Below the pieces are notes generated by a model. That model worked only from the letters and a program-made list of their open reading frames with translations. It did no database searches and was not told the origin of the DNA. From Bacteroidota bacterium (GTDB lineage: Bacteria > Bacteroidota > Ignavibacteria > Kapaibacteriales > UBA2268), in the NCBI GenBank assembly GCA_029974985.1, contig JARKQC010000203.1:458-64457 (forward strand): a DNA stretch of 64,000 bases. Direction: 5' to 3'. Below are positions 34,837 to 62,647 of this stretch, in pieces. The position numbers and the translations under genes are program-made. Every line of letters starts with the position of its first letter. Positions within the stretch are counted from its first letter, which is position 1.

Positions 34837-34848
34837 AATAATTAAAAT

Positions 34849-38346: not shown

Positions 38347-38353
38347 TAGCTTT

Positions 38354-43559: not shown

Positions 43560-44855
43560 TTGAGAAATACTCCTAAAATAATTGAATTAATTATAACGAT
43601 TTTAATAATTGTTATAGTAAATCTATTTTCATATCTTTTTCAGAGTCCAATTACTAATAACGATGGCAAAGGTATGGACGGAGTAGAATACTACAAAGTT
43701 GCGGAAGATTTTGTAAATAATAAAACGCCCGAAGCTAAGGCTCCGTTTGTTTATAGGATTGGAACTCCATATTTGGTAAGTGTTTTTTTTGAAAATGATT
43801 TACTAAATGGATTTAAAACGATAAATATTATAGCAGGATCTTTCATTCCAATAATGTTACTTTTTTGGATTTCACTATTTTATAACTCATCATTTTTAAG
43901 AATTTTACCCGTTGTGCTATTTTCATTGACTTGGCATTCGCCATTAAGATTAAGTTGGTATTATCCCGTTCATAGCGACCCTATTGCAGTTCTCATATTG
44001 CTTAAACTCCTTTTTTTGCTTTATTTAGTATCAAAAGATGAAAGTAAGTATATTATTTTTAATCAAAATTTATTACAAATATCATTCATTTTACTTACTT
44101 TTATTGGAGTGTTTTTTAGGGAAATTTGTGTGATTCCCGCATTTATTTTTAGTTTAAAAGCGATTAATTTTGATATTACAAACTTAAAATCCTTCAAATT
44201 TGATAATTTTAAACGCATTCAATATATATATTTAATTCCATTAATTTTTGGAATTTTTGGAATTATAATAACGCATATATTAGTAAATCCGATTGGTTCT
44301 TATTCATTTTTGGGGGCTTTAGGATTGTGGATATATCAAAAATCAATTGTAATGAATTTTCACGCATTAATTATAGCATTCGGACCAATAATATATATAA
44401 TATTTTTTACTTATTTAGATGCATGGAATTTTCTTAAAAAAGAAAAAGATTTATTAGTTTTTTTAATTATAATTTTATTTTTAAGTTTTGCGGGAGGCTC
44501 TGATACTGAACGAATAATTTATTGGTCATTTCCTATAGTATATTTATTAATTATAAATAGCATAATAAAAAACAAGGAAAAAGTTGTAAATATTTTATTT
44601 TTAAGTATAATAACGCTTGGTCAAATTATTAATATGCGAATATTTTTGACAACACCCGATTACCCAAACAATTATTCCAGCGTTCTGCCAATACTTACTC
44701 CAATCGCTAATAAATTTCCATTCCTCGATTTGTTTACTATGCACGGCTATTGGAAAGTAAATGTATTATCATTTTTCGAATATATAATTTTGATGATTAT
44801 AGCATATTTTATTTTTAATTATATAAAAATTAATAACATCAATACAACTAATTAA
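43560..44855 (+). CDS. Polytopic membrane protein (possible GT-C-type glycosyltransferase or polymerase), unknown family
   Basis: TTG start; 431 aa; more than 10 predicted hydrophobic helices. Its neighbourhood is rich in envelope genes. No diagnostic motif was recognised. Confidence 0.4.
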   Translation: MRNTPKIIELIITILIIVIVNLFSYLFQSPITNNDGKGMDGVEYYKVAEDFVNNKTPEAKAPFVYRIGTPYLVSVFFENDLLNGFKTINIIAGSFIPIMLLFWISLFYNSSFLRILPVVLFSLTWHSPLRLSWYYPVHSDPIAVLILLKLLFLLYLVSKDESKYIIFNQNLLQISFILLTFIGVFFREICVIPAFIFSLKAINFDITNLKSFKFDNFKRIQYIYLIPLIFGIFGIIITHILVNPIGSYSFLGALGLWIYQKSIVMNFHALIIAFGPIIYIIFFTYLDAWNFLKKEKDLLVFLIIILFLSFAGGSDTERIIYWSFPIVYLLIINSIIKNKEKVVNILFLSIITLGQIINMRIFLTTPDYPNNYSSVLPILTPIANKFPFLDLFTMHGYWKVNVLSFFEYIILMIIAYFIFNYIKINNINTTN

Positions 44856-47428: not shown

Positions 47429-48538
47429 TTATTTAAAAGTTTGCCCCTTCCAAATAATTTTTCTATCTAATAAAAGTGGTGGAATAATAATTTCCATAAT
47501 CATAAAGAAAATTATTGAAGGCAATATCCAAAGCAAAAGTTTTTCTTTTTTCAAAATTTTCAAAACTGGCTTTAACACAAAAAAATCGCATAGAATTCGA
47601 GTAAATATTACTGCAAAAAATAAATATTGATTAGATATTAATATTGAAGTAAGTAATCCGAGCCAAATCATAGTAGAAGTAAAAACAAAATAAACTGCAT
47701 CTTTTCCTAAATCTATTCCACCGACAGCCCAACGCTTATGTTGCAAAATATATTCATTAAAGGTATGGCAGGGGACAGTCGTTACAGTAGAATTATAATC
47801 GCATACATAATTGATTCTATATCCAGATTTAAAAACAGCTTTTAATAAAGCTAAGTCTTCTGTAACAGAAAATTTAATATTTGGATAGCCACCAATTTTA
47901 TCATAAACAGTTCTTCTAATTGATAAATTGTTACCATAGCAACCCAATGGATTATTGTTACCAACGCCAGCCCTTGCCATCGTGTGCATATAAACCCATT
48001 CTAAAGCCTGCAATTTATCAAAAATATTTTTATCATTAATTATAGTATAAGAAGGCACTAAACCTATTTCGGGATTTGAGAATCTTTGCTCTATTGTAGA
48101 AATCCAATTTGGATTTACTTGGCAATCGGCATCGGTCATCATAATAATTTCGCCCTTTGAGGATAATATCCCTTGGTGTAAAGCTCCCGGTTTGCCTTTT
48201 AAATTGTTTTTTTCAGAATCATTCTTAATATTTAAAATTTTTAAATTTGGAAATTCAACAGCTAAATTTTGCAAAATTGATAATGTATTATCTGTAGAAC
48301 GGTCATTTATGGCAATAATCTCAAATTTATCTTTTGGATAATTTGATTTCATTATATTACGAATACAATTTTCAATGTTAATTTCTTCATTTCGAGCTGG
48401 CACAACGACAGAAATAAAATGGAGCGATTTTTGATTATATAAAAATTTATTTTTGGAGTGTTCTTTACGATTACCAATAATCATAAATAAAGTTCTTAAA
48501 ATAAAAACTAAAATTGTAAATAAAATGAACCAAATCAT
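47429..48538 (-). CDS. Membrane-anchored processive-type glycosyltransferase family 2
   Basis: An N-terminal TM helix, then VSVVVPARNEE, INDRSTDNT, MTDADC (DxD), TEDLAL and QHKRWAVG (the Q(R/Q)xRW motif), then C-terminal TM helices. Confidence 0.75.
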   Translation of the reverse strand: MIWFILFTILVFILRTLFMIIGNRKEHSKNKFLYNQKSLHFISVVVPARNEEINIENCIRNIMKSNYPKDKFEIIAINDRSTDNTLSILQNLAVEFPNLKILNIKNDSEKNNLKGKPGALHQGILSSKGEIIMMTDADCQVNPNWISTIEQRFSNPEIGLVPSYTIINDKNIFDKLQALEWVYMHTMARAGVGNNNPLGCYGNNLSIRRTVYDKIGGYPNIKFSVTEDLALLKAVFKSGYRINYVCDYNSTVTTVPCHTFNEYILQHKRWAVGGIDLGKDAVYFVFTSTMIWLGLLTSILISNQYLFFAVIFTRILCDFFVLKPVLKILKKEKLLLWILPSIIFFMIMEIIIPPLLLDRKIIWKGQTFK

Positions 48539-48975
48539 AAAAAATTATTATTATTGAAATTAATATTCAGACTAAGTCGAAATTATTAAAAAAAAGTTTG
48601 AAAATAAGAATTTTATATAAAATTATTGGTCAATAATCGCCAAAATTGATTTTTTTTAAAAATTTTTAAAAAAAAATGAAAAAAAAGTGGAAAAAATCAC
48701 TTTTTTTGAGACGTTTTTGATTTTGATGTGTTACTACTAATAGAAGAAGATGCAAATTTTAAAAATGGTATTTAAAATTAAAATTAAAAATAGGAGTTCA
48801 AAATGAAATTAAAGAATTTTAATTAATAAAAAGTTTGATAAAAAGAATGATAAAAAAAATAAAATATTAATGAAAATTAAGCTAAATATACTATATTGCA
48901 TTACTAAAAAGTTGCAAATTGAAAAATATATTTTAAATAACAATTTTGTTGTACAAATAATTTAAGGGATTTTAT

Positions 48976-51900
48976 ATGAAGAAGCTTTTACTTCTTGTAA
49001 CTCTTATGCTCGGACTCATCGTAAGTTTTGCTTTTGCAAAGGATAAGGAGTCAGACGAAGAAGAGCTGCTTAGAAAAAGCACTTTGAAAGAACCACCCCA
49101 ATTTAACTCTGGTTCTACAAGCTTCCCTCGAAATTTTACTCCAAATGCACAGTGGACACAGCCCACAAATGCAGCAATTTCGACTGGGTATTATTGGATA
49201 GACGACCGTGAAAATTTGAATCCTCAACTATTTCCCGGTATGAAGCCAGCACATTCACGCGCTGATACAAACTATCAGCCAGAAATGTGGAGAAAAATTG
49301 TTCCAGGTCCAAGAATGCTACCTAAAGAGTATTGGACAAATAATAAAGCGGAAGGTTTGGCATTTTTCCGTCAGCCTTTTGATGCAGATTTTTGGAATTC
49401 TCCATCAGATTCAACTGATAATGCAATTGCAGGTCCAATTCCTATCGGTATTCGAGGTGGATTTTATTTCAATGGTCTGCGTTTTGACTCATTTTATGTA
49501 TCTACAAACGGGGTTATATCTTTGTCTAATAGAAGATATTTTTATGATGCAAATGGTAATCGTGTAATTCCTCCTGGTGCTACAAGTGCTTATGACCCAA
49601 TGTCAATGGACTGGTTTGCTGGTGGTACACGTGGTCATGATACATTATGGGTAAGAACTTGGGATGATTCACAAGATTCGATTTATATTACTGGTCCAAA
49701 TATGGGCAAACGTATTCCTTTATTAGATGGAAATGGAAATATTCAATATAAAAACGGTTTGAAAGATCCTGTTCCAGATAATTTTGGTTATCAGTTTGCT
49801 GCACTTGGAATAGATCCAATTAATTTTAGTGGTAATTCAGCTACCTCTGGTATTCGTGGTACTGGTGGTGATTTAGCTACTGCTATTAATTTAAATTGTA
49901 AAACTCCATTAATTGCAGTATTTTGGGGTGATTTAGTGTTATCTCAATATAACCCAGACACTAAATTAAAAGATGAGCATGGATATGTGTTCTATAAAAG
50001 AACTTATACAAATGACTCATTAATTATTGCATATTTTAATGCACAGCCAAAAGGTGCCATTGCTACACCATTTGGTAGTGTAAATATTAATCCAGATACA
50101 AGACCATACTCAACTAACTATGTAACTGCAAATGCTCACGTTGTTCTTTCGGCTGTTGACTCAAGTATTACAATCCACTATACTAGAGTTTCAGATAGAA
50201 TAACAACTACATATCGCCCTGTTCCAGGTGGTGAGGTGTTCAAATATAATACTACTTGTGGTGTTCGTGGTTTTGCTCGCCACGTAAATTTTGGTAAAGG
50301 TGGATTGCCAGAAGGTCAACCTTGGGGCGGCGAATATTTACAAACAACTACATATTTCCAAAGATATCAAGTTTATAATCCAGCTATTGAGTATCCTTAT
50401 ACTGGTACAACAGTAAAATTTAAACAATGGCAAAATACTTTACGCGTGCATGATGTTGCATATCGCGTAAGAAGTAAAGATCCTAAAGCAGATAATCCAA
50501 CTGATTTTGTTACAGAACTTAAATCAGATGAAATTTCAGATTATGAATTATTAGCTGGACACGAAAGACTCGGCGCTATTCAACCAGTTGCTATAATTCA
50601 AAACCTCACAAATGAAATTCAAGGTCCATCTGGAGTTAATTTTGTTAAACAATCACTAAATTTCCGTGGTCGTTTCCAAATTAGAAATACAATTACTAAT
50701 AGAGTTATTTATAACCGTTTAGTTCCCGTTGATGCTCTTTGTATGGGTTTGAGCGATAGCCCAGAAGATGCGGCAAAATGTAATGGTGATCCAACTGTAA
50801 GAGTACGTTTAGCTAATTATAATGGTGATAATATCAATATTATAAATAATTTCCAAGCTACAGGTTTTAATGGTGTACCTCCATATTATTTCGCAAGAAT
50901 AGTATTCCCACCATTTGAAGCTAACGAATTTATTGATAACCATATAGGAAGGATGCGTTCATTCGTTATCGCTGAGCCAGTAAATCCAGTAAGCGGTGAA
51001 AAATTACGTGATAATTGGCCTTTTGATGACTCATCAAAAGTTACATTATTTGTAATGAGAAGATATTATGATAATCACCCAAATCCAGAATTTAGAAAAT
51101 TTGAAGATGATGGTAGCCAATGGCATATTGACCTCGAATCTGGTGATAATATTCCTTCAGCATGGAAATGGGTAAATATTAATGCACAGATGGTTTCTGG
51201 TGATGCTGTTTCTAAATATCCGTTATCGCCACGTAAACTTGATACTGCTCATAATTATTTCTTAGGTGCTATGAATAATGCAATTACTTTAAGCGCCCCA
51301 GTAATAAAAATGAATCGTTTACAAATTGATGACTTTTCTGAGCCACTTAAAAAATATCAAGATAGTCGTGGTCTTGGTGGTGATGAGATTCGTTCATTCC
51401 CAATTGATTTATCTGGGAAACCAAATCCTATAATAACACTTTCTATTCAAAGAGTTATTCATAGAGAAGATTGGGCAAGAGATTATAGTGAAGAATTACT
51501 CGTTGGACCAGAGCCAAGAGTTACAGTTGCTGGACTTCCATTAACAGTATATAATAATAATAATGCCGCAAGTGCAGTTCCAGATGAAATATGCGTTGAA
51601 TTTGCAAAGCCTTCTGATGATGGAATTGACAGAATAACAAATATTAAACAAGATGACTGGAGACACTTACCATACAGACGTGGAACAAAAGATGCCGCTT
51701 TAACTAAACAAGCACCACTTACATTATATGGTGCAGGTGGTTATTTGATAGGATTCCTCGAAACAGATAAAGACTCTACATTGAATTTACCTGGCACTCC
51801 AGCTGGCGCTATTAACTCATTAAGATATAATAGATTTGATGATGGTATTGACTTGGAATATCAAAAATTTGCTATTCCAGTGCCAGATACATTCATATTA

Positions 51901-53835
51901 TGGAAAAATCAAGGCGCTAAATATTTTAGATTTAGAGTTAAAGTATATGCTGGTAATGACAAAAAATGTATGCAATGTATTAGTGATGACGCGGACGATT
52001 TCTTTGTAGATAATATTAAAATTCTTTACAGAGCAGAAGTTACAGATATTGAAGTATCATCAGTAAAAGTATCTTGGCCTTATACAATTGTTCCAGCTTC
52101 ACAAGCAACCTCTATTCCTATAACAGTTAGATTATCTAACAATACAGATATCGATGCTCCTAACTTTTCAATTAAAGTAAAAATATTTAGAGCAAACGAA
52201 AAAGGCGATCCAATAGAAAGAGATCCTATATATTGCCGTACACAAAACATCTCTAATTTAGTACGTCGCGGTACATTAGACCAAATTATGCCACCTTGGA
52301 ATGCTCGTAAAAGTTTAAGAGATACCGTGCAATATTTCAGACTTGTTTCAATGATAATGATGAATGAGCCAGATTTAGTTCCAACTAATGATACAACATT
52401 CTCAGTATTTACACTTAGAGTAGGTCGTGTATTTGCTTACGATCCACCAGATGAATCACCTACTAACTCATTAGGAGCTTCTGGTCTTAATTTAATGCTA
52501 CCTACATTACAATCTGGACAACCACGTTCAGGTCCAACTTGGGATGGTACTTTCGATACAAGAGGTGCTGTCGGTGGATCTGGCTCTGGTGCAGTAGCTG
52601 TAAAATTTAACTTGTTAAACTCTGATACATTACGCGGATACTCAATATTATGGGGCGCTTTAAATAGAGCGGCCGACCAAACAACTATGTCTTTATTTAG
52701 CGGTGGTGAAAGATTACCGAACGCGTCAAATCGTATTTATTCAGAAATTACTACACGTGGTGGAAAGAACTTTGCTAACGTTTATGGACGTTATGTTGAT
52801 TATGTATTTGCAAAACCAATAGTATTAGCTAAAGGAACATATTGGATTAGTATTTCTCAAGATGGTGAGACCGGTATGGAACTCGGTGTTTCTAAATCAA
52901 GAAGTGCTCAAAGAACTACAAATACTTATGTTTCACCATCAGGTATTTGGGGTGAAGCAGGTACATCATTAAATATTGATAAAAACTTCCGTAAAATGCA
53001 AAGTGGTAATTTAGTAAATGATAACTTCTTTGCTATGCAAAATGTTGCAGGTTCGTTAGAATGGCTTGAATTTACACCAACAGTTGGTAACCCAGCTTAT
53101 GGTAACTTAAACCATTATGGCGCACCCGTTGACCCACAAACTCAAACATTGACACGTGGTTCTTGGATACCTATGTTACGTCCATATTTCGGACCTAAAG
53201 GATTTGGCGAAGCTGTAAATGAATTCGAATGGTGCCCAGATGATATTCCAGTAGAATTATATACATTTACTGGAAGTGTTCGTCCTGCTGGTATTGATTT
53301 ATATTGGGAAACAGCATCTGAACTTAATAACTATGGCTTCTTTGTAGAAAGAAGAGAAGCAAGTAAAGAAGAAGAATTTAGACAAATAGGATTTGTTGCT
53401 GGTAATGGTAATTCATCTACTATTAGTCGTTATAACTTCTTAGATAAAGATGTAAAAGTTAAACAAACTTATGAATATCGCTTACGTCAAGTAGATAAAG
53501 ACGGTACTCAAGAATGCTTTACATCTGAAATTGTAACTCTTACTTATGATAAAATTGGTGACCTTGTTCTCGAACAAAATACACCAAATCCATTTGCTAG
53601 TACAACATTAATTAGCTTCAACGTGCCAAGCCCACAAGCTATAAAACTTGAAGTAATTGATTTATTTGGTAATGTGGTAAGAGTACTTGCTAACGAAAAT
53701 CTTACAGCTCAAAAACATTCATTCATTTTTGATGGAAATGATAATAATGGAAAACAATTACCAAGCGGTAGTTATATCTATAGATTATCTTCTGAAAATG
53801 AAGTTTTAACTGGTAAGATGAGCATTGTACGTTAA
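48976..53835 (+). CDS. Giant secreted T9SS cargo protein, paralog 1 (1619 aa), unknown function
   Basis: Signal peptide MKKLLLLVTLMLGLIVSFAFA. NIDO-like segment GPIPIGIRGGFYFNGLRFDSFYVSTNGVISL. C-terminus VELYTFTG..GIDLYWETASELNNYGFFVERR..., then LEQNTPNPFASTTLISFNV...LPSGSYIYRLS, a T9SS/FlgD-Ig-like CTD. Confidence 0.88.
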   Translation: MKKLLLLVTLMLGLIVSFAFAKDKESDEEELLRKSTLKEPPQFNSGSTSFPRNFTPNAQWTQPTNAAISTGYYWIDDRENLNPQLFPGMKPAHSRADTNYQPEMWRKIVPGPRMLPKEYWTNNKAEGLAFFRQPFDADFWNSPSDSTDNAIAGPIPIGIRGGFYFNGLRFDSFYVSTNGVISLSNRRYFYDANGNRVIPPGATSAYDPMSMDWFAGGTRGHDTLWVRTWDDSQDSIYITGPNMGKRIPLLDGNGNIQYKNGLKDPVPDNFGYQFAALGIDPINFSGNSATSGIRGTGGDLATAINLNCKTPLIAVFWGDLVLSQYNPDTKLKDEHGYVFYKRTYTNDSLIIAYFNAQPKGAIATPFGSVNINPDTRPYSTNYVTANAHVVLSAVDSSITIHYTRVSDRITTTYRPVPGGEVFKYNTTCGVRGFARHVNFGKGGLPEGQPWGGEYLQTTTYFQRYQVYNPAIEYPYTGTTVKFKQWQNTLRVHDVAYRVRSKDPKADNPTDFVTELKSDEISDYELLAGHERLGAIQPVAIIQNLTNEIQGPSGVNFVKQSLNFRGRFQIRNTITNRVIYNRLVPVDALCMGLSDSPEDAAKCNGDPTVRVRLANYNGDNINIINNFQATGFNGVPPYYFARIVFPPFEANEFIDNHIGRMRSFVIAEPVNPVSGEKLRDNWPFDDSSKVTLFVMRRYYDNHPNPEFRKFEDDGSQWHIDLESGDNIPSAWKWVNINAQMVSGDAVSKYPLSPRKLDTAHNYFLGAMNNAITLSAPVIKMNRLQIDDFSEPLKKYQDSRGLGGDEIRSFPIDLSGKPNPIITLSIQRVIHREDWARDYSEELLVGPEPRVTVAGLPLTVYNNNNAASAVPDEICVEFAKPSDDGIDRITNIKQDDWRHLPYRRGTKDAALTKQAPLTLYGAGGYLIGFLETDKDSTLNLPGTPAGAINSLRYNRFDDGIDLEYQKFAIPVPDTFILWKNQGAKYFRFRVKVYAGNDKKCMQCISDDADDFFVDNIKILYRAEVTDIEVSSVKVSWPYTIVPASQATSIPITVRLSNNTDIDAPNFSIKVKIFRANEKGDPIERDPIYCRTQNISNLVRRGTLDQIMPPWNARKSLRDTVQYFRLVSMIMMNEPDLVPTNDTTFSVFTLRVGRVFAYDPPDESPTNSLGASGLNLMLPTLQSGQPRSGPTWDGTFDTRGAVGGSGSGAVAVKFNLLNSDTLRGYSILWGALNRAADQTTMSLFSGGERLPNASNRIYSEITTRGGKNFANVYGRYVDYVFAKPIVLAKGTYWISISQDGETGMELGVSKSRSAQRTTNTYVSPSGIWGEAGTSLNIDKNFRKMQSGNLVNDNFFAMQNVAGSLEWLEFTPTVGNPAYGNLNHYGAPVDPQTQTLTRGSWIPMLRPYFGPKGFGEAVNEFEWCPDDIPVELYTFTGSVRPAGIDLYWETASELNNYGFFVERREASKEEEFRQIGFVAGNGNSSTISRYNFLDKDVKVKQTYEYRLRQVDKDGTQECFTSEIVTLTYDKIGDLVLEQNTPNPFASTTLISFNVPSPQAIKLEVIDLFGNVVRVLANENLTAQKHSFIFDGNDNNGKQLPSGSYIYRLSSENEVLTGKMSIVR

Positions 53836-53883
53836 TTTTATTTATAAAAAAATTAACTAAATGTTAAGCTAAATTCGTTCAAT

Positions 53884-53923
53884 ATTCAGCCCTTTACTCT
53901 CAAAGAAAGGTAAGGGGCTGAAT
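53884..53923 (+). terminator. Rho-independent terminator after giant paralog 1
   Basis: attcagccctttac-tctcaaagaaag-gtaaggggctgaat forms a stem with one G-U pair, followed by ttatt. Confidence 0.65.
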
Positions 53924-53948
53924 TTATTAAAAATTTAATAAGAATTTT

Positions 53949-54007
53949 TATGTAAAAAATAATAATATCAAAATAATGTAATATTTTTGTACATTATTTT
54001 TTACATA
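53949..54007. promoter_or_regulatory. Perfect 15-bp inverted repeat bracketing a -7-like box upstream of the 563-aa gene
   Basis: tatgtaaaaaataat (53949-53963) and attattttttacata (53993-54007) are exact reverse complements with a 29-nt spacer. The spacer contains TAttTTTG at 53982-53989. Confidence 0.4.
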
Positions 54008-54151
54008 AGTATTTAAAAATAAATTATGAAAAAATAAAATTTGAATTAATATTATAAATAAAAGAATAATTATAATTGATATAGTAAAAAAATGTTTATT
54101 TTATAATATTGTAAAATTATTTATTAAGAAAATAAATCAAGGTAAATAGTA

Positions 54152-55843
54152 ATGGAAATTAAAGGGTCAAAAATTCTTGTATTAGGCGGTTGGGGCTTAG
54201 TAGGCTCAGCTGTTTGTAGAAAGCTGATGGAAAATAATCCAGCTCAATTAATGGTATCTTCATTAAAACAATCCGAAGCCGAAGACGCAATCGAGCAGTT
54301 ACGTAAGGAATATCCCGATTCAAATCCAGAAATGTTTGTACCTAAATGGGGTAATATTTTTACTCGACAAGATTGGAAAGATATTGACTTTAATGAAGTT
54401 TTAACTAATTCCGAAAAAAGAAAAATACAAATTCGAGATATATTTAATGAATTATCTGAAGATATAGTAAAAAATTCTGCTTTATATAATTTAATAATAG
54501 AATCTAAACCAGATATTGTAATTGATTGTATTAATACAGCTACTGCAATTGCCTATCTTAATATATATAATACAGTTACTAACGCACTTAAACGAATTGA
54601 AGAAGATTCAATTGATGATTCTGTAGTTGAGAACATTATTGCAAGTTCATATATCCCACAATTAATTAGACATATTCAGCTTTTATATCGCGGATTAATA
54701 GATACAAACTCAAAATTTTATTTTAAAATTGGAACAAGTGGCACTGGTGGTATGGGATTTAATATTCCTTATACTCATAGCGAAGAAAGGCCTTCGAGAG
54801 TGTTATTATCTAAAAATGCTGTTGCAGGAGCACAAAGTTTATTACTCTTTGCACTTGCAAGAACGCCAAATGGACCAATAGTAAAAGAAATCAAACCAAC
54901 CGCTTCGATTGCTTGGAAAAAAATTGCTTATGGAGATGTAAAACGCCGTGGAAAAGCAATTGAACTTGTTGATATGGATTTTTCTAATGCAAAAAATATT
55001 AATGATTATTTCATTTTTGATGATATAGAAAATGTAAATTTAACGGGTGAAAATTTTAAATCTGTCTTTATTGATACTGGTGAAAATGGTATTTTCTCTC
55101 GTGGCGAGTTTCAAGCAATTAGTTCACTTGGACAAATGGAAATAATTACTCCAGAAGAAATTGCCGAATATCTTGTTTACGAAATAAAAGGTGGTAATAC
55201 TGGTAAAGATATTATTCAAGGATTAGATGCATTTACTATGGGACCAACTTATCGTGGCGGGATGCTAAGAAATGTTGCAATGGAAAAATTAGATGAATTA
55301 GAAAAAGAGCATAATGTAAATAGTGTAGCCTTTGAATTGCTTGGACCTCCAAGATTATCCAAATTGTTATATGAGGCATATTTGTTAAAATGTATTACTG
55401 AAAAAATGAAAAATGTTGCAAATTATAGTGCTAAAGAATTATCATTAAAAGCCGAAGAGCTTTTGAAAAATGATAATCAATTACGAAAACAAATATTATC
55501 AATAGGATTAGCAATACTTTTAAATAATGGAAAAAATTATTTAAGGGGTAAAGACATAAAAATTCCTGTTAGACGCGGAGTGACAAAACTTGAGTTTACG
55601 CCAGAAAATATTAATCAATGGTGTTATGATGGCTGGATAGACCTAAGAGAATCAAATTTTGAAATTTGGAAAGAAAGAATAAATACAATAATGGAACAGT
55701 CAAATTCATTACCTACTGACACGACAAGCTCAAGATATACTTATACAAATAAATTCTGGGGCAATTTCGAGGAAATTAATGAAGGCAAAATTGTGGGCTG
55801 GATTTTTGAATATGAAGATAAAGGTTGGCGTTTTAAACGTTAA
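54152..55843 (+). CDS. NAD(P)-binding Rossmann-fold protein of unknown function (563 aa)
   Basis: N-terminal KILVLGGWGLVGSAVCRKL (GxGxxG) followed by an acidic/Ser beta2 end. DIVIDCINTA and GTSGTGGMGFNIPYTH also occur. The large C-terminal region has no recognised motifs. Confidence 0.6.
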   Translation: MEIKGSKILVLGGWGLVGSAVCRKLMENNPAQLMVSSLKQSEAEDAIEQLRKEYPDSNPEMFVPKWGNIFTRQDWKDIDFNEVLTNSEKRKIQIRDIFNELSEDIVKNSALYNLIIESKPDIVIDCINTATAIAYLNIYNTVTNALKRIEEDSIDDSVVENIIASSYIPQLIRHIQLLYRGLIDTNSKFYFKIGTSGTGGMGFNIPYTHSEERPSRVLLSKNAVAGAQSLLLFALARTPNGPIVKEIKPTASIAWKKIAYGDVKRRGKAIELVDMDFSNAKNINDYFIFDDIENVNLTGENFKSVFIDTGENGIFSRGEFQAISSLGQMEIITPEEIAEYLVYEIKGGNTGKDIIQGLDAFTMGPTYRGGMLRNVAMEKLDELEKEHNVNSVAFELLGPPRLSKLLYEAYLLKCITEKMKNVANYSAKELSLKAEELLKNDNQLRKQILSIGLAILLNNGKNYLRGKDIKIPVRRGVTKLEFTPENINQWCYDGWIDLRESNFEIWKERINTIMEQSNSLPTDTTSSRYTYTNKFWGNFEEINEGKIVGWIFEYEDKGWRFKR

Positions 55844-55912
55844 AAATATAATATGAAATTAAATAATAAAATAATAATAATTATGTTTTACAAATTTATT
55901 GGGGTTTTTTAA

Positions 55913-58900
55913 ATGAAGAATCTCTTACTGCTTATAGCAATTAGTTTTGGAATGATTGTTGGCATATCTTATGCCAAGGATAAAGAAACTAATGAAGAAG
56001 AGCTGCTAAGAAAAAGTCAGTTGACCGAAGGTGCATATTTTCAATCCGGTTTGACAAGTTTCCCAAGAAACTTCGCACCGACCTCTGCTTGGTCAACTCC
56101 TACAAATGCGGCTATTTCTACAGGCTATTATTGGGTTGATGACAGAGAGATGCTTGATGATATGCTATTTCCGAATATGCGCCCATCACCATCAAAAATT
56201 GATACAGGATATCAACCTGAATTATGGAGAAAAATTTTAGCAGGTCCGAGAATGAAACCTGCTACTTATTGGCAAACAAATAAATCAGAAGGTTTGCCTT
56301 TTTTCAGACAGCCAGCTGATGGTGATAAAGATGGGGATTTCTTTTTGCAACCGACTGACTCAGTTGATGAAGCAATTGCTGGTCCTATTCCTTTAGGTAT
56401 GAATGGTGGTTTTTATTTTAATGGTATAAGATATGATTCATTTTATGTATCAACTAATGGTTTGATAGCTCTTACTAATAGAAGATATTTTTATGATGAA
56501 AATGGAAATAGAACAATACCAAATGGCTCTACAAGCGCTTACGATCCAATGTCAATGGATTGGTTTGCTGGTGGTTTTAGAGGACACGATACATTATGGG
56601 TAAGAAAATGGGACAACTCAGCGGATTCAGTAGATCGTGATTTGAAGAAAATTCCTGTTAAAGATGAGAATGGAGTTATCTTATTTAAAAATGGTTTGAA
56701 CGACCCAGCAGTTGATAATTTTGGTTATCAATTCTCTGTTTTAGGTGCAAACCCCGTAACTACTGGTTGGGATAGAAAAGTAACTACAAACGGTATTCGA
56801 ACTCGTGGTGGCGATTTATTGTCTGGTATTGACCCAAATTCAAGAACTGCTATGATTGCTGTATTTTGGGGTGATTTAGTTTTATCTCAATATAATCCTA
56901 CTACAAAAAATAATGAAGAACATGGTAAAGTAATGTATAAACGCTCATCGAATAAAGATTCTTTGATAATTGCGATTTACAATGCACAACCCAAAGGACG
57001 CTTAATTGCGGCTTTAAACTTAGCGGCTGGACAAGGTTATACAACTGAAATACCAGCTAATACTCGCCCCGGTGATGAATCTTATGCTACAGCCGATGCA
57101 CATGTTGTATTATCTAATGTTGACTCAAGTATTACTATTCATTATACAAGAATATCAGATAGTGTTACTTACCTTGACCCTAATACTGGTATATATATGA
57201 AAGCTCATGCACGTGAAATTTTCAGATATAATACTACTGCTGGAGTTCGCGGATTTGCTCGACACGTTGGTTTTGGTAAAGGCGGATTACCTCCTTATCA
57301 ACCTTGGGCTGGTGAATATATTCAAGCAACTACTTATTGGGATAGATATTACTCTGATACATTAAATCCAGAAGTAATGTATCCAAATTCAATGTCAGCA
57401 GTAAAATTTAAACAATGGAAAAATACTTTAAGAGTTCAATCTCTAAATTATAGAATCAGAAATCAAGCTGTTGGTGCTGGTGATACAACTTCTTTTGTTA
57501 TTACTGTACCAGATGCTAACGCTGATGATTATGAGTTACTTGCTGGCCATAGTAGATTAGGACAAATTCAACCATTTGCAATAGTTCAGAATTTAACAAA
57601 CGAAATTCAAGGACCTTCGGGGATTAATTTTGTTAAACAAGACCATACTTTTAGAGTTCGTTTCTTAATTAGAAATTCTGTAACAGGTAGGTCAATTTAT
57701 AATAGAGTTGTTCCCGTTAATGCAAAATGCTTGAGTTTAGCAGATAATAGAGCAGTTGAATGTAATGGCGATCCTAATATTCGTGTAAGACTCGTTCGTG
57801 GTACAACCGTATTAACAAACAATGATTTTATAAATCTTGGTTTTACTGGTATTCCAGCATATTATGGTGTGCAAGTACAATTTCCACCATTTGAACCAAA
57901 TCAATTTATTGATGAACATATTGGTAAAATGAAGGCTATTGCAGTTGCAGAGCCAATTAATCCTGCTACAAATACAGCTTATGAAGATAATTGGCCCTTC
58001 GATGATACACTTAAAACTACAATGCACGTTATGAGAAGATATTATGACAAACATCCAGACCCAAGATTTAGAGTGTTTGATGATGACGTTAGTGAGTTCT
58101 TCTATGACTTAGAAAATGGCGATTATATTCCTTCTGTTTGGAAATGGGTAAATATTAATGCGAATGTTGTATCAGGTAACGATGTTTCTAAATATCCTTT
58201 ACCACCAAGAAGATATGATACCGCGGCTAATTATTTTCTTGAAGTACCAAATGCTTTGAAAGTATTACATTCACCAACAATAAGAATGAATCGTGTTCAA
58301 CGTGCAAATGGTGCTGAACCATTAGCAAGATTTGGCGATAATAGATCACCACAACGTAATGGTGATGAAATACGCTCATTCCCAATTGATTTACGTGGTA
58401 AAAAAGGAACAGTTTTAACATTATCAGTTCAAAGAACAGCTTATAATCCAGATATTAAACGTGGATTTGCAGATAAATTACTTGTTGGACCAGAGCCAAG
58501 AGTAGTACGTCAAGGTAATGTTTTAAATCCATATTTACTTGGTAATTCAGTAAGTAGCTTGCCAGATGAATTAGTTGTTGAATTTGCAAAACCTTCTGAT
58601 GACGGTATTAATGGTATTACAAATATTCCATTAACTAATTGGAGACATCATCCATATAGAAGAGGTACTGCATTATATGCTCGTACTGATATGGCAGCAC
58701 TAACTCTTTATGGTGCTGGTGGATATTTGATAGGCTTCTTAGAAAAAGATAAGGATTCTGTGTTAGCTCCTCCGGGTGCAGCGGCTTCTGGATTAATTAA
58801 TTCTTTGAGAGCTGACTTATATGATGATGGATTTGACTTAGAATATAAGAAATTTGCTATTCCAATTCCAGATACATTTATTAATTGGAGAAATAACGGT

Positions 58901-60922
58901 GCGCAATATTTCAGATTTAGAATTAAAGTTTATGCTACAAATAATAAAAATGCTAAAAATTGTGTTAATTGTGTAGCAGATGACTTTGATGATTTCTTCG
59001 TTGATAATGTGCGTTTGTTATATCGTTCAGAAACTACTGATTTGGAAATTTCTTCTGTAAAAGTTAATTGGCCCTATACGATAGCGCCTGCTTCACAAAC
59101 AACAAATATTCCACTTTCTGTTGTTATATCTAATAACACTACTTTGAATGCGGCAAATTTTGCAGTTAAATTAAAGATATTCAGAACTGATAGTAAAGGT
59201 AATTTGATTAATAATGATCCAATTTATTGTCGTACTCAAACTATTTCAAATTTAACACCAAGTGGTACTATTAATATTTCAATGCCTTCTTGGAATGCTC
59301 GTAAAAGCCAAATTGATACCATATCCTATTATAGATTATATGCTAATTTAATAATGGGTGAAAAGGATTTAATTCCAAGCAATGATACTACTTTTTCAGA
59401 TTTTGTCCTAAGAGTAGGAAATGTTTTTGCTTATGATCCAGCTGTTGAAAAGAGTTATAATTCAATAAATGACTTTATTACTCCAAAAGGAAAAGGTTTA
59501 AACTTTACATTACCATTAATTACTAAACCAAATCCACTACCTGGATTACCACCTATACAAGTTAATTCACCACGTGCTGGTCAAGGCAGTTTAGACGGGC
59601 TTAACATTGCTAATTTCAGTTTTGTTACTGATGCTACGGGTGCAGTTGGTGGCGACGGATCTGGCTCTATTGCCGCTAAATTTACTTTATTAAATTCTGA
59701 TACTTTACGCGGTTTTTCAATATTCTGGGCTGGTATCAATAAAGCGGCTGACTATGTAACTATTAGACTTTATGAAGGTGGAGATAAATTACCTAATGAA
59801 TCAAAGATTATTAAAGTATTCCATACAAGACGTGGTGGACCAAACTTTGCTAATATTTATGACCAATATGTAAATTATCAATTTGATGAGCCTATCATAT
59901 TAACTAATGGTGTTTATTGGTTAGGTGTTTCACAAGATGGTGAAACTGGCTTTGAACTTGCCGCTTCAAGTTCGAGATCAGGTATGAGAACTACTAACTT
60001 ATGGGAAGACCAAAGTACGGGTTGGCTTGGCGAACAAGGTATTTCACTTAACTTAGATAAAGGTTTCCGTAAGATTGTTGATGGTAAATTAGTAAATGAT
60101 AACCTTTTTGCTTTCCAAAATGTTACTACTATTGGTAAATGGATGGAATTTACACCAGCAAAAGGTAACCCTGCATTCGGACACTTAGACCATCGTGGAA
60201 TTTGCATCAATGATATGAGTACATTTACTATGACACGTGGTACTTGGATACCAATGATTAGAGCATTATTCGGATTTAAACCATTCGGTGAAGCCGTTAA
60301 TGATTATGAGTGGTGCCCAGATGAAAATGTAGTTCCAGTTGAATTATATACATTTACTGGTAATGTTCGTAATTCAGGTATTGATTTATATTGGGAAACT
60401 GCTTCTGAAATTAATAATTTTGGATTTTATGTTGAAAAACGTATTGCTAATTCAAAAGATGATTTTAAACAAATTGGATTTGTGCAAGGTGTTGGCAATT
60501 CATCATCAATTAGCCGTTATAATTTCTTAGATAAAGATGTTAAAGTAAAAACTACTTATGAATATCGTCTTCGTCAAGTAGATAAAGATGGTTCACAAGA
60601 TTGCTTTACTTCTAATATCGTTACATTGACTTATGATAGAATTGGTGAATTGGTATTAGAGCCAAATATGCCAAATCCGTTTGTAAATCAAACAGTTATT
60701 AGCTTTAATTTACCTCAATCACAAGAAGTTAGACTCGAAGTTATAGATATGCTTGGAAATACTGTAAAAGTACTCGAAAATGGATATCTACAAGCAAATC
60801 GTCATTCTTATATATTTGATGGTAATGATGCTAATGGAAATGCTTTACCAACTGGTATTTATATTTATAAACTATCAGCTGGAAACAATATTCAATCTCT
60901 TAAAATGAATATTGTACGTTAA
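55913..60922 (+). CDS. Giant secreted T9SS cargo protein, paralog 2 (1669 aa), unknown function
   Basis: Collinear with 48976-53835 from the signal peptide to the CTD. Examples: KDKETNEEELLRKS, NAAISTGYYWVDDRE, GPIPLGMNGGFYFNGIRYDSFYVSTNGLIAL, and LEPNMPNPFVNQTVISFNL...LPTGIYIYKLS. Confidence 0.88.
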   Translation: MKNLLLLIAISFGMIVGISYAKDKETNEEELLRKSQLTEGAYFQSGLTSFPRNFAPTSAWSTPTNAAISTGYYWVDDREMLDDMLFPNMRPSPSKIDTGYQPELWRKILAGPRMKPATYWQTNKSEGLPFFRQPADGDKDGDFFLQPTDSVDEAIAGPIPLGMNGGFYFNGIRYDSFYVSTNGLIALTNRRYFYDENGNRTIPNGSTSAYDPMSMDWFAGGFRGHDTLWVRKWDNSADSVDRDLKKIPVKDENGVILFKNGLNDPAVDNFGYQFSVLGANPVTTGWDRKVTTNGIRTRGGDLLSGIDPNSRTAMIAVFWGDLVLSQYNPTTKNNEEHGKVMYKRSSNKDSLIIAIYNAQPKGRLIAALNLAAGQGYTTEIPANTRPGDESYATADAHVVLSNVDSSITIHYTRISDSVTYLDPNTGIYMKAHAREIFRYNTTAGVRGFARHVGFGKGGLPPYQPWAGEYIQATTYWDRYYSDTLNPEVMYPNSMSAVKFKQWKNTLRVQSLNYRIRNQAVGAGDTTSFVITVPDANADDYELLAGHSRLGQIQPFAIVQNLTNEIQGPSGINFVKQDHTFRVRFLIRNSVTGRSIYNRVVPVNAKCLSLADNRAVECNGDPNIRVRLVRGTTVLTNNDFINLGFTGIPAYYGVQVQFPPFEPNQFIDEHIGKMKAIAVAEPINPATNTAYEDNWPFDDTLKTTMHVMRRYYDKHPDPRFRVFDDDVSEFFYDLENGDYIPSVWKWVNINANVVSGNDVSKYPLPPRRYDTAANYFLEVPNALKVLHSPTIRMNRVQRANGAEPLARFGDNRSPQRNGDEIRSFPIDLRGKKGTVLTLSVQRTAYNPDIKRGFADKLLVGPEPRVVRQGNVLNPYLLGNSVSSLPDELVVEFAKPSDDGINGITNIPLTNWRHHPYRRGTALYARTDMAALTLYGAGGYLIGFLEKDKDSVLAPPGAAASGLINSLRADLYDDGFDLEYKKFAIPIPDTFINWRNNGAQYFRFRIKVYATNNKNAKNCVNCVADDFDDFFVDNVRLLYRSETTDLEISSVKVNWPYTIAPASQTTNIPLSVVISNNTTLNAANFAVKLKIFRTDSKGNLINNDPIYCRTQTISNLTPSGTINISMPSWNARKSQIDTISYYRLYANLIMGEKDLIPSNDTTFSDFVLRVGNVFAYDPAVEKSYNSINDFITPKGKGLNFTLPLITKPNPLPGLPPIQVNSPRAGQGSLDGLNIANFSFVTDATGAVGGDGSGSIAAKFTLLNSDTLRGFSIFWAGINKAADYVTIRLYEGGDKLPNESKIIKVFHTRRGGPNFANIYDQYVNYQFDEPIILTNGVYWLGVSQDGETGFELAASSSRSGMRTTNLWEDQSTGWLGEQGISLNLDKGFRKIVDGKLVNDNLFAFQNVTTIGKWMEFTPAKGNPAFGHLDHRGICINDMSTFTMTRGTWIPMIRALFGFKPFGEAVNDYEWCPDENVVPVELYTFTGNVRNSGIDLYWETASEINNFGFYVEKRIANSKDDFKQIGFVQGVGNSSSISRYNFLDKDVKVKTTYEYRLRQVDKDGSQDCFTSNIVTLTYDRIGELVLEPNMPNPFVNQTVISFNLPQSQEVRLEVIDMLGNTVKVLENGYLQANRHSYIFDGNDANGNALPTGIYIYKLSAGNNIQSLKMNIVR

Positions 60923-60947
60923 AAAAAACTTTTTAAAAGTGAAAATT

Positions 60948-60982
60948 AACCCTTTACCGTCTTGGTAAAGGGTTTTTTATTT
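60948..60982 (+). terminator. Rho-independent terminator after giant paralog 2
   Basis: aaccctttacc-gtctt-ggtaaagggtt followed by ttttatttt. Confidence 0.75.
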
Positions 60983-60999
60983 TATTTAAAGGGAAAAAT

Positions 61000-61344
61000 A
61001 TGTCTGATTCAATTTTTACTAAAATTATAAAAAGAGAAATTCCATCTGAAATAGTTTTTGAAGATGATGAAATTATTGCGTTTAATGATATTGCGCCCAA
61101 AGCACCAATTCATATTTTAATAGTACCTAAAAAACAAATACCAACGTTAAACAATGCAACTGAAAACGATGCAGAACTACTTGGAAAATTATTACTTACT
61201 TGCTCGAAAATCGCTAAGATGAAAGGAATTGATGAGCGTGGCTATAGAGTTGTAATTAATTGCAATGAAGAAGCTTGCCAAACCGTATTTCATATACATT
61301 TTCATTTAATTGGCGGTAAACAATTAGGTTGGTCGCCAGATTGA
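61000..61344 (+). CDS. HIT-family (histidine triad) nucleotide hydrolase
   Basis: IFTKIIKREIPSEIVFEDDEIIAFNDIAPKAPIHILIVPK and the triad HIHFHLIGG. Confidence 0.88.
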   Translation: MSDSIFTKIIKREIPSEIVFEDDEIIAFNDIAPKAPIHILIVPKKQIPTLNNATENDAELLGKLLLTCSKIAKMKGIDERGYRVVINCNEEACQTVFHIHFHLIGGKQLGWSPD

Positions 61345-61360
61345 TAATTAGTAAATTATT

Positions 61361-62647
61361 ATGAAAAAAAATGTACCTATTGCTATTGTTGATTGTAACA
61401 ATTTTTATGCCTCTTGTGAAAGGATTTTTAATCCTAAATTAATTGGCAAACCAATAGTTGTTTTATCTAATAATGATGGAATTATTGTTGCCCTATCAAA
61501 TGAGGCTAAACAATTAGGTATTAAAAATTTTTCTCCGCTTTTTAAAGTAAATGATATATTAAAAAAATATGATGTAGCTGTATTTTCCTCTAATTATACA
61601 CTTTATGGTGATATTTCTCATCGTATAATGATTTCACTTGAGCAGTTTTCACCAGAAATTGAGGTTTATTCAATTGATGAAGCATTTGTGTATTTAGATG
61701 GAATTCATAATAAAGATTTATTCTCTTATGCACAAGAAATGCAGAAAACTATTAAAAAATGGATTGGAATTCCCGTTTCTATTGGTATTGCCGAAACAAA
61801 AACATTAGCTAAATTAGCTAATCGAAGAGCAAAAAAAAATCAAGAATATAAAGGAATACTAAATTTAATTAATAATGTGGAAATAGAAAGTCATCTAAAA
61901 TTGACTAATGTTACAGATGTTTGGGGAGTAGGGAGGCAATATACAAAACTATTAAACTGCCATAATATATATAATGCTTACGATTTATCGAAAGTAAATC
62001 ATAATTGGATTAAAAAAAAAATGACAGTACAAGGCTTGCGTACAGTTATGGAATTAAATGGATTCCCCTGTATCGAAGGGGAATTTATACCACCAGATAA
62101 AAAAGGAATAATCTCATCTCGTTCATTTAGTAATTATGTAAGTGAAAAAAATGAGCTTTCTGAAGCTATTGCAACATATACCTCAAGAGCCGCAGAAAAA
62201 TTACGTATGCAAAAGTCTGTTGCAAATATGATAAGCGTATTTTTAAGAACTAATCCATATAAAAATACTCCTCAATATCATAATGGGTGCCAGGTAATGT
62301 TGCCCGTTGCAACAGATTTTACAAATGAATTAATTGATTACGCATTAAAAGGACTTGAGCAAATTTATAAACCTAATTATCTTTATCAAAAAGTAGGTGT
62401 AATGATAACTGGAATTTTACCGAAGAATATTTTACAAAATTCCTTATTTGATAATATTGATAGAGAAAAAAATCAAAAATTAGTTGATGCTATTGATAAG
62501 ATTAATCTTGAATATGGCTCGGATACAATATATTTTGCCTCGTCGGGAGTTCAAAAAAAATGGCAAATGAAAAGAGATTTTAAATCACCACAATATACTA
62601 CACGCTGGGAGGATATCCCTTATGTTATATCTAATTTAGTAGATTAA
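61361..62647 (+). CDS. umuC: Y-family DNA polymerase, UmuC-like
   Basis: N-terminus IAIVDCNNFYASCERIFNPKLIGKPIVVLSNNDGIIVA (UmuC-type SNNDG motif), YSIDEAF, and a C-terminus ...RWEDIP. No umuD-like gene is adjacent. Confidence 0.7.
   Translation: MKKNVPIAIVDCNNFYASCERIFNPKLIGKPIVVLSNNDGIIVALSNEAKQLGIKNFSPLFKVNDILKKYDVAVFSSNYTLYGDISHRIMISLEQFSPEIEVYSIDEAFVYLDGIHNKDLFSYAQEMQKTIKKWIGIPVSIGIAETKTLAKLANRRAKKNQEYKGILNLINNVEIESHLKLTNVTDVWGVGRQYTKLLNCHNIYNAYDLSKVNHNWIKKKMTVQGLRTVMELNGFPCIEGEFIPPDKKGIISSRSFSNYVSEKNELSEAIATYTSRAAEKLRMQKSVANMISVFLRTNPYKNTPQYHNGCQVMLPVATDFTNELIDYALKGLEQIYKPNYLYQKVGVMITGILPKNILQNSLFDNIDREKNQKLVDAIDKINLEYGSDTIYFASSGVQKKWQMKRDFKSPQYTTRWEDIPYVISNLVD

Follow-up and report, generated by a model that had tools for sequence, protein, structure and literature searches.

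We analyzed a stretch of 64,000 nucleotides from a Bacteroidota bacterium of the order Kapaibacteriales (assembly GCA_029974985.1, contig JARKQC010000203.1, positions 458 to 64,457), referred to in the following as the window. Two very large open reading frames (ORFs), here called giant A and giant B, are separated by a single gene for a protein of 563 amino acids (aa), and both giants carry signals for export through type IX secretion (the T9SS). This layout, with ORF lengths of 1619 and 1669 aa, had been the starting point of the original prediction, in which the giants were regarded as possible major surface proteins forming a module with the enzyme between them. The coordinates proved exact, and all three genes are located on the + strand. 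The giants, with their C-terminal domains (CTDs), and the intervening gene are positioned as follows:

48976..53835, + strand: giant A, ORF of 1619 aa
49432..49512, + strand: most conserved motif of the family, giant A aa 153-179, GPIPIG..GGFYFNG.RFDSFYVSTNG
53581..53823, + strand: CTD of giant A (TIGR04183, aa 1536-1616; PF18962, aa 1537-1616)
54152..55843, + strand: ORF of the putative 563-aa oxidoreductase between the giants
55913..60922, + strand: giant B, ORF of 1669 aa, collinear paralogue of giant A
60671..60907, + strand: CTD of giant B (TIGR04183, aa 1587-1665; FlgD_ig, aa 1599-1658)

Paralogy and export signals of the giants

The two giants had been judged by eye to be alignable from signal peptide to CTD, and BLASTP bore this out with one end-to-end alignment containing only short gaps (988 of 1677 positions identical, i.e. 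59%; E = 0); their overall identity is put at 59-61%. The corresponding DNA is collinear at a constant offset of ~7 kb and 70-79% identical. As no long near-identical tract is shared by the two genes, their duplication must be old. No sign of recent gene conversion between the two was seen, the longest DNA repeats being only 70-79% identical.

Giant A comprises a signal peptide (aa 1-21), an all-beta passenger of ~1,500 aa, an Fn3-like sandwich (aa ~1425-1530), and the CTD (aa ~1536-1616). Sec-type signal peptides were read from the sequences of the two giants (MKKLLLLVTLMLGLIVSFAFA and MKNLLLLIAISFGMIVGISYA, each followed by KDKE). In each, the N-terminus is positively charged and the core hydrophobic, and AFA or SYA precedes K at the cleavage-type site; a lipobox cysteine was looked for in both signal peptides and not found. 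At the C-terminus, the sorting region named in the original prediction was recovered as a TIGR04183-type match in both proteins (31.1 bits each, curated cut-off 23). The FlgD_ig scores of 32.6 bits (giant A) and 35.3 bits (giant B) also exceeded the cut-off of 27, and those for PF18962 (23.7 and 25.7 bits) were slightly below its cut-off of 27. Among 30 diverse relatives, FlgD_ig was found in all 30 and PF18962 in 25. The sorting domain and the Sec signal peptide thus support, at the level of sequence, an assignment of the giants to the type-A CTD cargo of the T9SS. A role as secretion machinery of the PorU, PorZ, or SprA type was rejected, as the PorU model matches the CTD alone (22.8 bits versus a cut-off of 420).

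In total, the window encodes five CTD proteins, i.e. the two giants and three others. The latter are the products of three consecutive T9SS cargo genes (1462, 1165, and 872 aa; 30448-40972, + strand), each with a Por_Secre_tail CTD and the first two (1462 and 1165 aa) with Ig_7/PKD-like repeats. With this trio, the window has another group of large secreted proteins besides the giants.

Domain searches and predicted fold of the passenger

Searches against Pfam and NCBIfam with both giants, seven sub-fragments of them (E ≤ 10), and 30 diverse relatives returned the CTD only. No match in the giants was obtained for passenger families of the protease, glycosidase, adhesin repeat, leucine-rich repeat, or PKD kind, and CARDB, MAM, LamG, and choice-of-anchor families did not appear among the matches of giants, fragments, or the 30 relatives. 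Likewise, no surface-layer (S-layer)-related family was matched in Pfam or NCBIfam, and no PDB sequence beyond the CTD; a family profile compared with PDB sequences found FlgD Ig-like domains at the CTD and nothing else. Hence, the portion matching no family is indeed large, though its size is ~1,530 aa rather than the ~1,300 aa estimated originally, and no characterised enzyme or adhesin family covers the giants at full length in Pfam, NCBIfam, or the PDB profile search.

A NIDO-like stretch had also been proposed. The motif itself is real (aa 153-179), includes numerous invariant columns, and is better conserved than any other stretch of the family; its core (aa 163-179) is similar to NIDO (PF06119) in the short pattern F-x-F-x-G-x-x-Y/F-x-x-x-x-V-S-T-N-G. 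The PF06119 profile, however, gave no match on the full giants (E ≤ 1), on 30 relatives (E ≤ 0.05), or on fragments of ~290 aa spanning the region (aa 134-425 of giant A and aa 140-445 of giant B; E ≤ 10).

To model the fold, two overlapping segments of giant A were submitted to AlphaFold with alignments built from 47 diverse family members. The resulting models (aa 22-1025 with a predicted local distance difference test score, pLDDT, of 83 and a predicted template modelling score, pTM, of 0.76; aa 1015-1619 with pLDDT 86.7 and pTM 0.66) are both nearly all beta, with scarcely any helix. When both models were compared with the PDB by Foldseek, and the N-terminal one also with BFVD, the matches were generic multi-sandwich proteins with template modelling (TM) scores below 0.2 and high root-mean-square deviation (RMSD). 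They included the archaeal S-layer protein 7ptp, sandwich domains of transglutaminase and complement proteins, accessory domains of GH101, and phage lectin or jelly-roll proteins. 7ptp was the best match of the C-terminal model (TM 0.14), a generic similarity of Ig arrays. The structural check thus yielded a confidently predicted, nearly all-beta fold, but no specific known one, and a catalytic fold was not seen in these multi-domain models. A GH101-like enzyme was rejected, because the similarity is restricted to accessory beta-sandwiches (TM 0.13, RMSD >20 Å) and the nearly helix-free model leaves no room for the (beta/alpha)8 barrel of GH101.

Size, range, and conservation of the family

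A word-indexed search detected 285 homologues, nearly all of them 1,550-1,700 aa long and collinear with the giants, which are thus members of a conserved family rather than junk ORFs. The named homologues are mostly labelled Candidatus Kapabacteria, Kapaibacterium, or Ignavibacteria, with a few other, apparently mislabelled titles, and their annotations do not go beyond hypothetical, 'T9SS type A sorting domain', or 'FlgD Ig' proteins. Many Kapaibacteria-type loci carry record titles such as 'uncultured Hyphomicrobiales bacterium', 'Desulfobulbaceae', 'Chloroflexota', and 'Chloroherpeton thalassium' (among the odd-titled loci are L004, L005, L010-L013, L015, and L019); they look like mislabelled or mis-binned metagenome-assembled genomes (MAGs). 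Nothing on the giant family turned up in literature searches that combined Kapabacteria or Ignavibacteria with T9SS, S-layer, or proteomics.

The first 1,004 mature residues were also compared exhaustively with 1.84 billion cluster representatives by HMMER, which returned 133 matches at E ≤ 1e-3, all of them from MAGs labelled Kapaibacteria or Ignavibacteria; 64 had E ≤ 1e-30. With such a small number of matches, the family is narrow. The most distant ones are T9SS cargo proteins of ~1,000-1,170 aa (P0290, P0303, P0304, P0309, P0312, and P0347), which share only the region from aa ~460-720 of the giants onward to aa ~1000 and are likewise devoid of known domains. Their sequences suggest a wider superfamily based on the middle module of the giants.

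Conservation per 40-aa block ranged between 0.4 and 0.8 and was even over the whole giant, with peaks at aa 161-200 (0.80, the top block) and aa 521-560. In alignments of 30-35 diverse members, over 120 columns are invariant, with D, N, R, W, Y, and G frequent among them, and the family has Asp-rich motifs, e.g. DDxDDFxVDN. Length (1,550-1,700 aa) and collinearity were kept in all 83 full-length copies, which show no internal repeats. The mature giants, which have 10 and 8 cysteines, are mildly acidic (isoelectric points of 5.8 and 6.3). The sequon D(S/T)(A/I/L/V/M/T), which is the O-glycosylation motif of Bacteroidota (PMC8550257), occurs in the giants 1.5-fold more often than in shuffled sequences, with five positions conserved; we regard this as a lead only.

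Gene neighbourhood and duplication history

Neighbouring genes were compared across 75 loci, consisting of 72 obtained by scanning a single genome for each GTDB species, two from contig look-ups, and the window itself. Counts were derived from tblastn and ORF clustering, to which Pfam labels were added. Two of the recurrent neighbours flank the giants in the window:

47429..48538, - strand: membrane GT2 gene, 369 aa, PF00535, divergent from giant A
61000..61344, + strand: HIT-family gene, 114 aa, PF01230 (96.5 bits), downstream of giant B

Over all loci, the following neighbours were counted:

563-aa gene: 59 of 75 loci, directly upstream of a giant and co-directional, median gap 64 bp
HIT gene: 47 of 75 loci, directly downstream of a giant, median gap 84 bp
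GT2 gene: 28 of 75 loci, upstream, median 2.3 kb from the giant
KpsF-like SIS+CBS gene: 27 of 75 loci, further downstream
RodZ-like gene: 25 of 75 loci, further downstream

According to these counts, the conserved unit is the series enzyme, giant, HIT. The arrangement of a Rossmann-fold gene between two giants, for which conservation as a module had been anticipated, was not upheld: most genomes have a single giant, and the layout giant-enzyme-giant-HIT was found in only five of the 75 loci, i.e. the window and its four close relatives L001, L007, L008, and L009. Outside the enzyme-giant-HIT unit, the flanks differ between loci.

Giant B occupies the ancestral slot between enzyme and HIT gene, yet it is the more diverged copy. 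Single-copy relatives are closer to A (63-67% identity) than to B (57-61%), and an outgroup is equidistant. We rejected the idea that the single-copy relatives arose as chimeras, as they are nearer to A in every quarter of the protein. We propose that the second giant, upstream of the enzyme gene, goes back to an older duplication in the clade of the window. Orthologous A/B pairs are kept in the window, L001, L007, L008, and apparently L009, where the second copy is cut by the contig end. Giant B orthologues in L001, L007, and L008 are 71-75% identical, and orthologues of A and B across this clade are 70-80% identical; both copies must therefore be old and under purifying selection.

In a distance tree of the 83 full-length copies, at least six other independent tandem duplications were evident, with the layouts giant-giant-HIT, enzyme-giant-giant, and enzyme-giant-HIT-giant. 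Tandem-duplicated loci are L002/L037, L017, L028, L031, L035, L046, L052 (three copies), L062, L066, and L069. Some MAGs have dispersed extra giants lacking the enzyme (L029/L063 with L024; L050 with L021; L060 with L059). Extra copies without the enzyme were found in L002/L037, L029, L050, L051, and L060.

Several other ORFs of the region were noted. In the window, the HIT gene is followed by a gene for a DinB/UmuC-type polymerase of the IMS family (61361-62647, + strand); in relatives, it is usually followed by the KpsF-like SIS+CBS and RodZ-like genes (L001, 22473-24421). A 447-aa ORF without Pfam match lies between GT2 and giant or enzyme in 16 relatives (L001, 8434-9777) and is absent from the window, which has a 431-aa ORF without Pfam match at 43560-44855 (+ strand). 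Inside giant B, a 98-aa antisense ORF (59914-60210, - strand) recurs in seven loci (ORF cluster 21); most likely, it is a by-product of the conserved sense frame and not a gene.

Non-coding elements and transcription

The regions around the giants contain the following elements:

48539..48975: AT-rich intergenic region of 437 bp between GT2 and giant A, read from the sequence; presumed promoter site
48585, 48822, and 48900 (starts): 39-nt AT-rich direct repeat (family D16) in three copies, 72-100% identical
53884..53923, + strand: terminator-like hairpin 3' of giant A, 15-bp stem, -21.5 kcal/mol, z -6.66
60948..60974, + strand: intrinsic terminator 3' of giant B, 12-bp stem, -16.8 kcal/mol, z -4.1

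Each giant is thus followed by a strong hairpin of its own, in line with the terminators named in the original prediction. For giant A, none of 200 shuffled sequences folded equally well; the tail of the hairpin (AAUUUAUU) is just moderately U-rich, and the element was missed by a consensus terminator scan because its loop exceeds 8 nt. The stem 3' of giant B is followed by the T-run TTTTATTTT. The gap of 69 bp between the enzyme gene and giant B is unstructured (z +1.4) and free of hairpins, so that both genes are probably part of one transcript, which would start in the 316-bp AT-rich spacer past the giant A hairpin. In a scan for sigma-70 promoters, matches were no more common than in shuffled sequence. 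Neither a riboswitch nor a leader was detected by Rfam in 48400-61500, the sole match being a chance miRNA (E = 0.085). The 39-nt repeats (48585-48938) are candidate promoter or operator elements, or mere low-complexity AT sequence.

Codon usage served as a proxy for expression. The codon adaptation index (CAI), computed with the ribosomal protein (r-protein) genes of the window as reference, was 0.73-0.75 for the giants, 0.60-0.79 for r-protein genes, and 0.57-0.75 for other genes. It does not separate r-protein genes from the others, because the GC content at third codon positions is ~0.15-0.25 everywhere. As a replacement, a leave-one-out likelihood ratio (LLR) of synonymous codon choice was used, for which r-protein genes (+0.0125 ± 0.017) and other genes (-0.0115 ± 0.019) differed significantly (Mann-Whitney p = 7e-5). 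Giant A (+0.028) and giant B (+0.014) fell on the r-protein side, and the enzyme (-0.015), GT2 (-0.016), and the three further T9SS cargo genes of the window (-0.013 to -0.030) on the other. The signal came chiefly from GGT, CGT, TTC, CAC, and GAC. The earlier view that the codon usage of the giants resembles that of the ribosomal genes more than that of their neighbours is thus supported in part, by LLR for both giants and unlike enzyme and GT2, but not by CAI. This weak codon signal may hint at high expression of the giants.

The 563-aa enzyme and the GT2 neighbour

The 563-aa protein has a putative N-terminal Rossmann segment (aa 6-77) containing a GxxGxxG motif (GGWGLVGS). Its Pfam scores were narrowly below threshold for Epimerase (19.6, cut-off 20.9), SDR (19.1, cut-off 27), and Polysacc_synt_2 (16.2, cut-off 20.2), and its family profile matched the Rossmann segment of 3pvz in the PDB (E = 1.5e-4), i.e. 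it resembles sugar-nucleotide dehydratases. The precomputed Pfam annotation assigns the C-terminal domain PF27054 (Beta_methylindole_red_C) to the identical protein P0121, to all 120 listed homologues, and to the L001 orthologue. From these features, we take the protein to be an SDR-like NAD(P) oxidoreductase of the cytoplasm whose C-terminal domain is of the Ind2 type. Ind2 is the NADH-dependent 3-methylindolepyruvate ketoreductase of indolmycin biosynthesis in Streptomyces (PMC8246080). The enzyme resembles Ind2 in PF27054 and has an N-terminal GxxGxxG motif of the Rossmann kind, but genes of the indolmycin type do not occur near its gene. Since PF27054 is shared with Ind2, the enzyme family is not specific to the T9SS. 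The enzyme has a constant length and a mean column identity of 73% (22 homologues); its homologues are 55-80% identical, as compared with 38-80% for the giants.

The gene divergent from giant A had been described as a processive membrane GT2. It is a genuine and divergently transcribed GT2 (PF00535, 92.4 bits, cut-off 23.3; PF13641, 75 bits; Glyco_transf_21, 50 bits, passing its own cut-off), but equivalog models of processive synthases were not matched (PgaC_IcaA, 98.5 bits versus a cut-off of 422; CelA, 44.6 versus 699). Models of the lipid glycosyltransferases HpnI, HpnB, and CruG gave similar scores, those for HpnI and CruG being far under their cut-offs. GT2 is a loosely conserved neighbour of the giants.

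The giants as a candidate core surface protein

Our preferred interpretation, to which we give about an even chance of being correct, is that the giants represent a lineage-specific core surface protein exported by the T9SS, i.e. a structural coat or binding scaffold. The giants would cross the inner membrane via Sec with a cleavable signal peptide and the outer membrane via the T9SS with the type-A CTD; by analogy with other type-A cargo, the CTD would then be cleaved and the giant retained on the cell surface. According to the models, the passenger of ~1,500 aa would be a rigid, almost all-beta array of jelly-roll and Ig-like sandwiches with Asp-rich motifs resembling Ca sites. Enzyme, giant, and HIT gene form an old conserved block. 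The analysis establishes gene structure, paralogy, signal peptide, CTD, the prediction of an all-beta fold, the extent of the family, synteny, and recurrent duplication. Surface retention, the structural or coat role, abundance, and co-transcription of enzyme and giant B are parts of the picture that we infer. As the passenger is evenly conserved from end to end, a core component of the envelope is most likely, rather than a dispensable accessory adhesin. Further support comes from the location of the giants among envelope and housekeeping genes (enzyme, HIT, KpsF-like SIS+CBS, and RodZ-like), and from the occurrence of full-length collinear homologues in 72 species-level loci with duplicates repeatedly kept. 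The r-protein-like codon choice and the composition of the giants (mildly acidic and enriched in the O-glycosylation sequon) also speak in favour.

The closest analogue, as judged by description, is the S-layer of Tannerella forsythia, which is composed of TfsA and TfsB (133 and 151 kDa) and forms a surface coat only with a working T9SS (PMC4175972). In both cases, there are two large proteins with an N-terminal signal peptide and a T9SS CTD, and the scale is similar (~175-185 kDa for the mature giants, estimated from length); the giants are encoded as neighbouring paralogues. The mild enrichment of the Bacteroidota O-glycosylation sequon in the giants may be a further parallel. No sequence relationship to TfsA and TfsB is claimed. 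As most relatives have a single copy, a two-subunit lattice would not be general in the giant family. The original proposal of major surface proteins is thus retained as far as T9SS cargo, unrecognised passenger, and the TfsA/TfsB precedent are concerned, but not with respect to NIDO and the giant-Rossmann-giant module.

Several observations weigh against a core coat. The giant family is far more evenly conserved than typical S-layer proteins, which are usually fast-diverging and tolerant of indels. Such even conservation is unusual and, combined with many invariant positions (D, E, R, H, W, and Y) and with 8-10 cysteines, would suit an enzyme or part of a machine as well, and as the Foldseek searches were made with multi-domain models, an all-beta catalytic domain may be hidden in them. 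The T9SS components porK/L/M/N, sprA/sov, porU, and porV lie neither in the 64-kb window nor in the loci of ±10 kb, which are the regions covered; the five CTD proteins of the window would be indirect support for such machinery in the host. Moreover, the LLR effect is small and noisy and CAI does not discriminate; EF-G, which is surely highly expressed, scores -0.018. Finally, surface retention and release are not told apart by sequence alone.

The giants may instead be surface-attached or secreted enzymes with a novel all-beta catalytic domain, the other sandwiches serving as carbohydrate-binding modules. The strong and even conservation with many invariant charged and aromatic residues, peaking at aa 161-200 and 521-560, would fit this explanation, as would the appearance of GH101, the putative glycoside hydrolase 4jrl, and lectin- or carbohydrate-binding-module-like proteins among the top Foldseek matches. 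Moreover, most characterised large T9SS cargo proteins of environmental Bacteroidota are hydrolases. Nevertheless, we consider it unlikely: no hydrolase, lyase, or peptidase family was detected in 30 members with Pfam and NCBIfam, the GH101 matches concern accessory sandwiches at TM 0.13 in a helix-poor model that excludes the barrel, and the giant gene is universal, present in one or two copies and in a housekeeping context, unlike loci of the polysaccharide-utilisation type.

Rather improbable, in our view, is a functional module of enzyme and giant(s), in which the oxidoreductase would supply a moiety (sugar, lipid, or small molecule) needed to modify, anchor, or assemble the giant. Such a module could explain the place of the enzyme gene, which in 59 of 75 loci immediately precedes a giant in the same direction (median gap 64 bp), next to giants of down to 38% identity, and it would be in line with the hairpin-free gap of 69 bp in the window, the resemblance of the enzyme N-terminus to sugar-nucleotide dehydratases (3pvz, E = 1.5e-4), and the GT2 and KpsF-like genes near giants in many loci. 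T9SS cargo is known to be glycosylated and anchored to lipopolysaccharide (PMC4175972). However, extra giants occur without the enzyme (L002/L037, L029, L050, L051, and L060), and the HIT gene is equally conserved, which points to inherited gene order rather than shared function. PF27054 is also found in a reductase of Streptomyces secondary metabolism, and the enzyme is more conserved than the giants, with a codon usage that is not r-protein-like, unlike that of the giants.

Improbable to the same degree is an ordinary, lineage-specific duplication of an adhesin without a core role, the gene order being kept by slow rearrangement in a poorly sampled clade. The family is indeed narrow (133 of 1.84 billion representatives), the window alone encodes three more large CTD proteins, and many T9SS organisms have dozens of them. 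Yet adhesins of this sort tend to contain repeats, to differ in length, and to have a patchy distribution, whereas the 83 full-length giants keep their length and collinearity and have no internal repeats. Furthermore, the flanks outside enzyme, giant, and HIT vary, so that gene order is not generally frozen. Somewhat less probable still is a more specific proposal, a Kapaibacteria-specific T9SS coat of one to three paralogous subunits, depending on lineage, for whose assembly or anchoring the product of the co-transcribed Ind2-type oxidoreductase would be needed.

Significance for the Kapaibacteria

With respect to the kind of system, the giants are an undescribed passenger family inside a known one, i.e. 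T9SS cargo, and no new kind of system. Like other type-A cargo, they have a signal peptide and, at the C-terminus, an Ig-like sorting domain of ~75 aa scoring over the curated cut-off, but their passenger of ~1,500 aa belongs to no described passenger family. As such, they are a candidate for a new Pfam family or domain of unknown function, with several novel beta-sandwich domains. If they were merely another large cargo protein, the finding would be routine.

Bioreactors, sediments, hot springs, and groundwater commonly harbour Kapaibacteria and their relatives, which are uncultured. A T9SS cargo protein of ~1,600 aa is present in essentially every sampled member, and its length and order have been kept over deep divergence. 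Near-ubiquity, constant length and order, and ~1,500 aa without recognizable domains make the giant a good candidate for the main surface structure of this lineage. Should the coat prove to depend on a tailoring enzyme as well, it would constitute a new class of S-layer or sheath with a dedicated cytoplasmic enzyme. If the coat reading is true, it would be only the second type of S-layer built by the T9SS, after that of Tannerella, and would provide a marker and antigen for the Kapaibacteria group.

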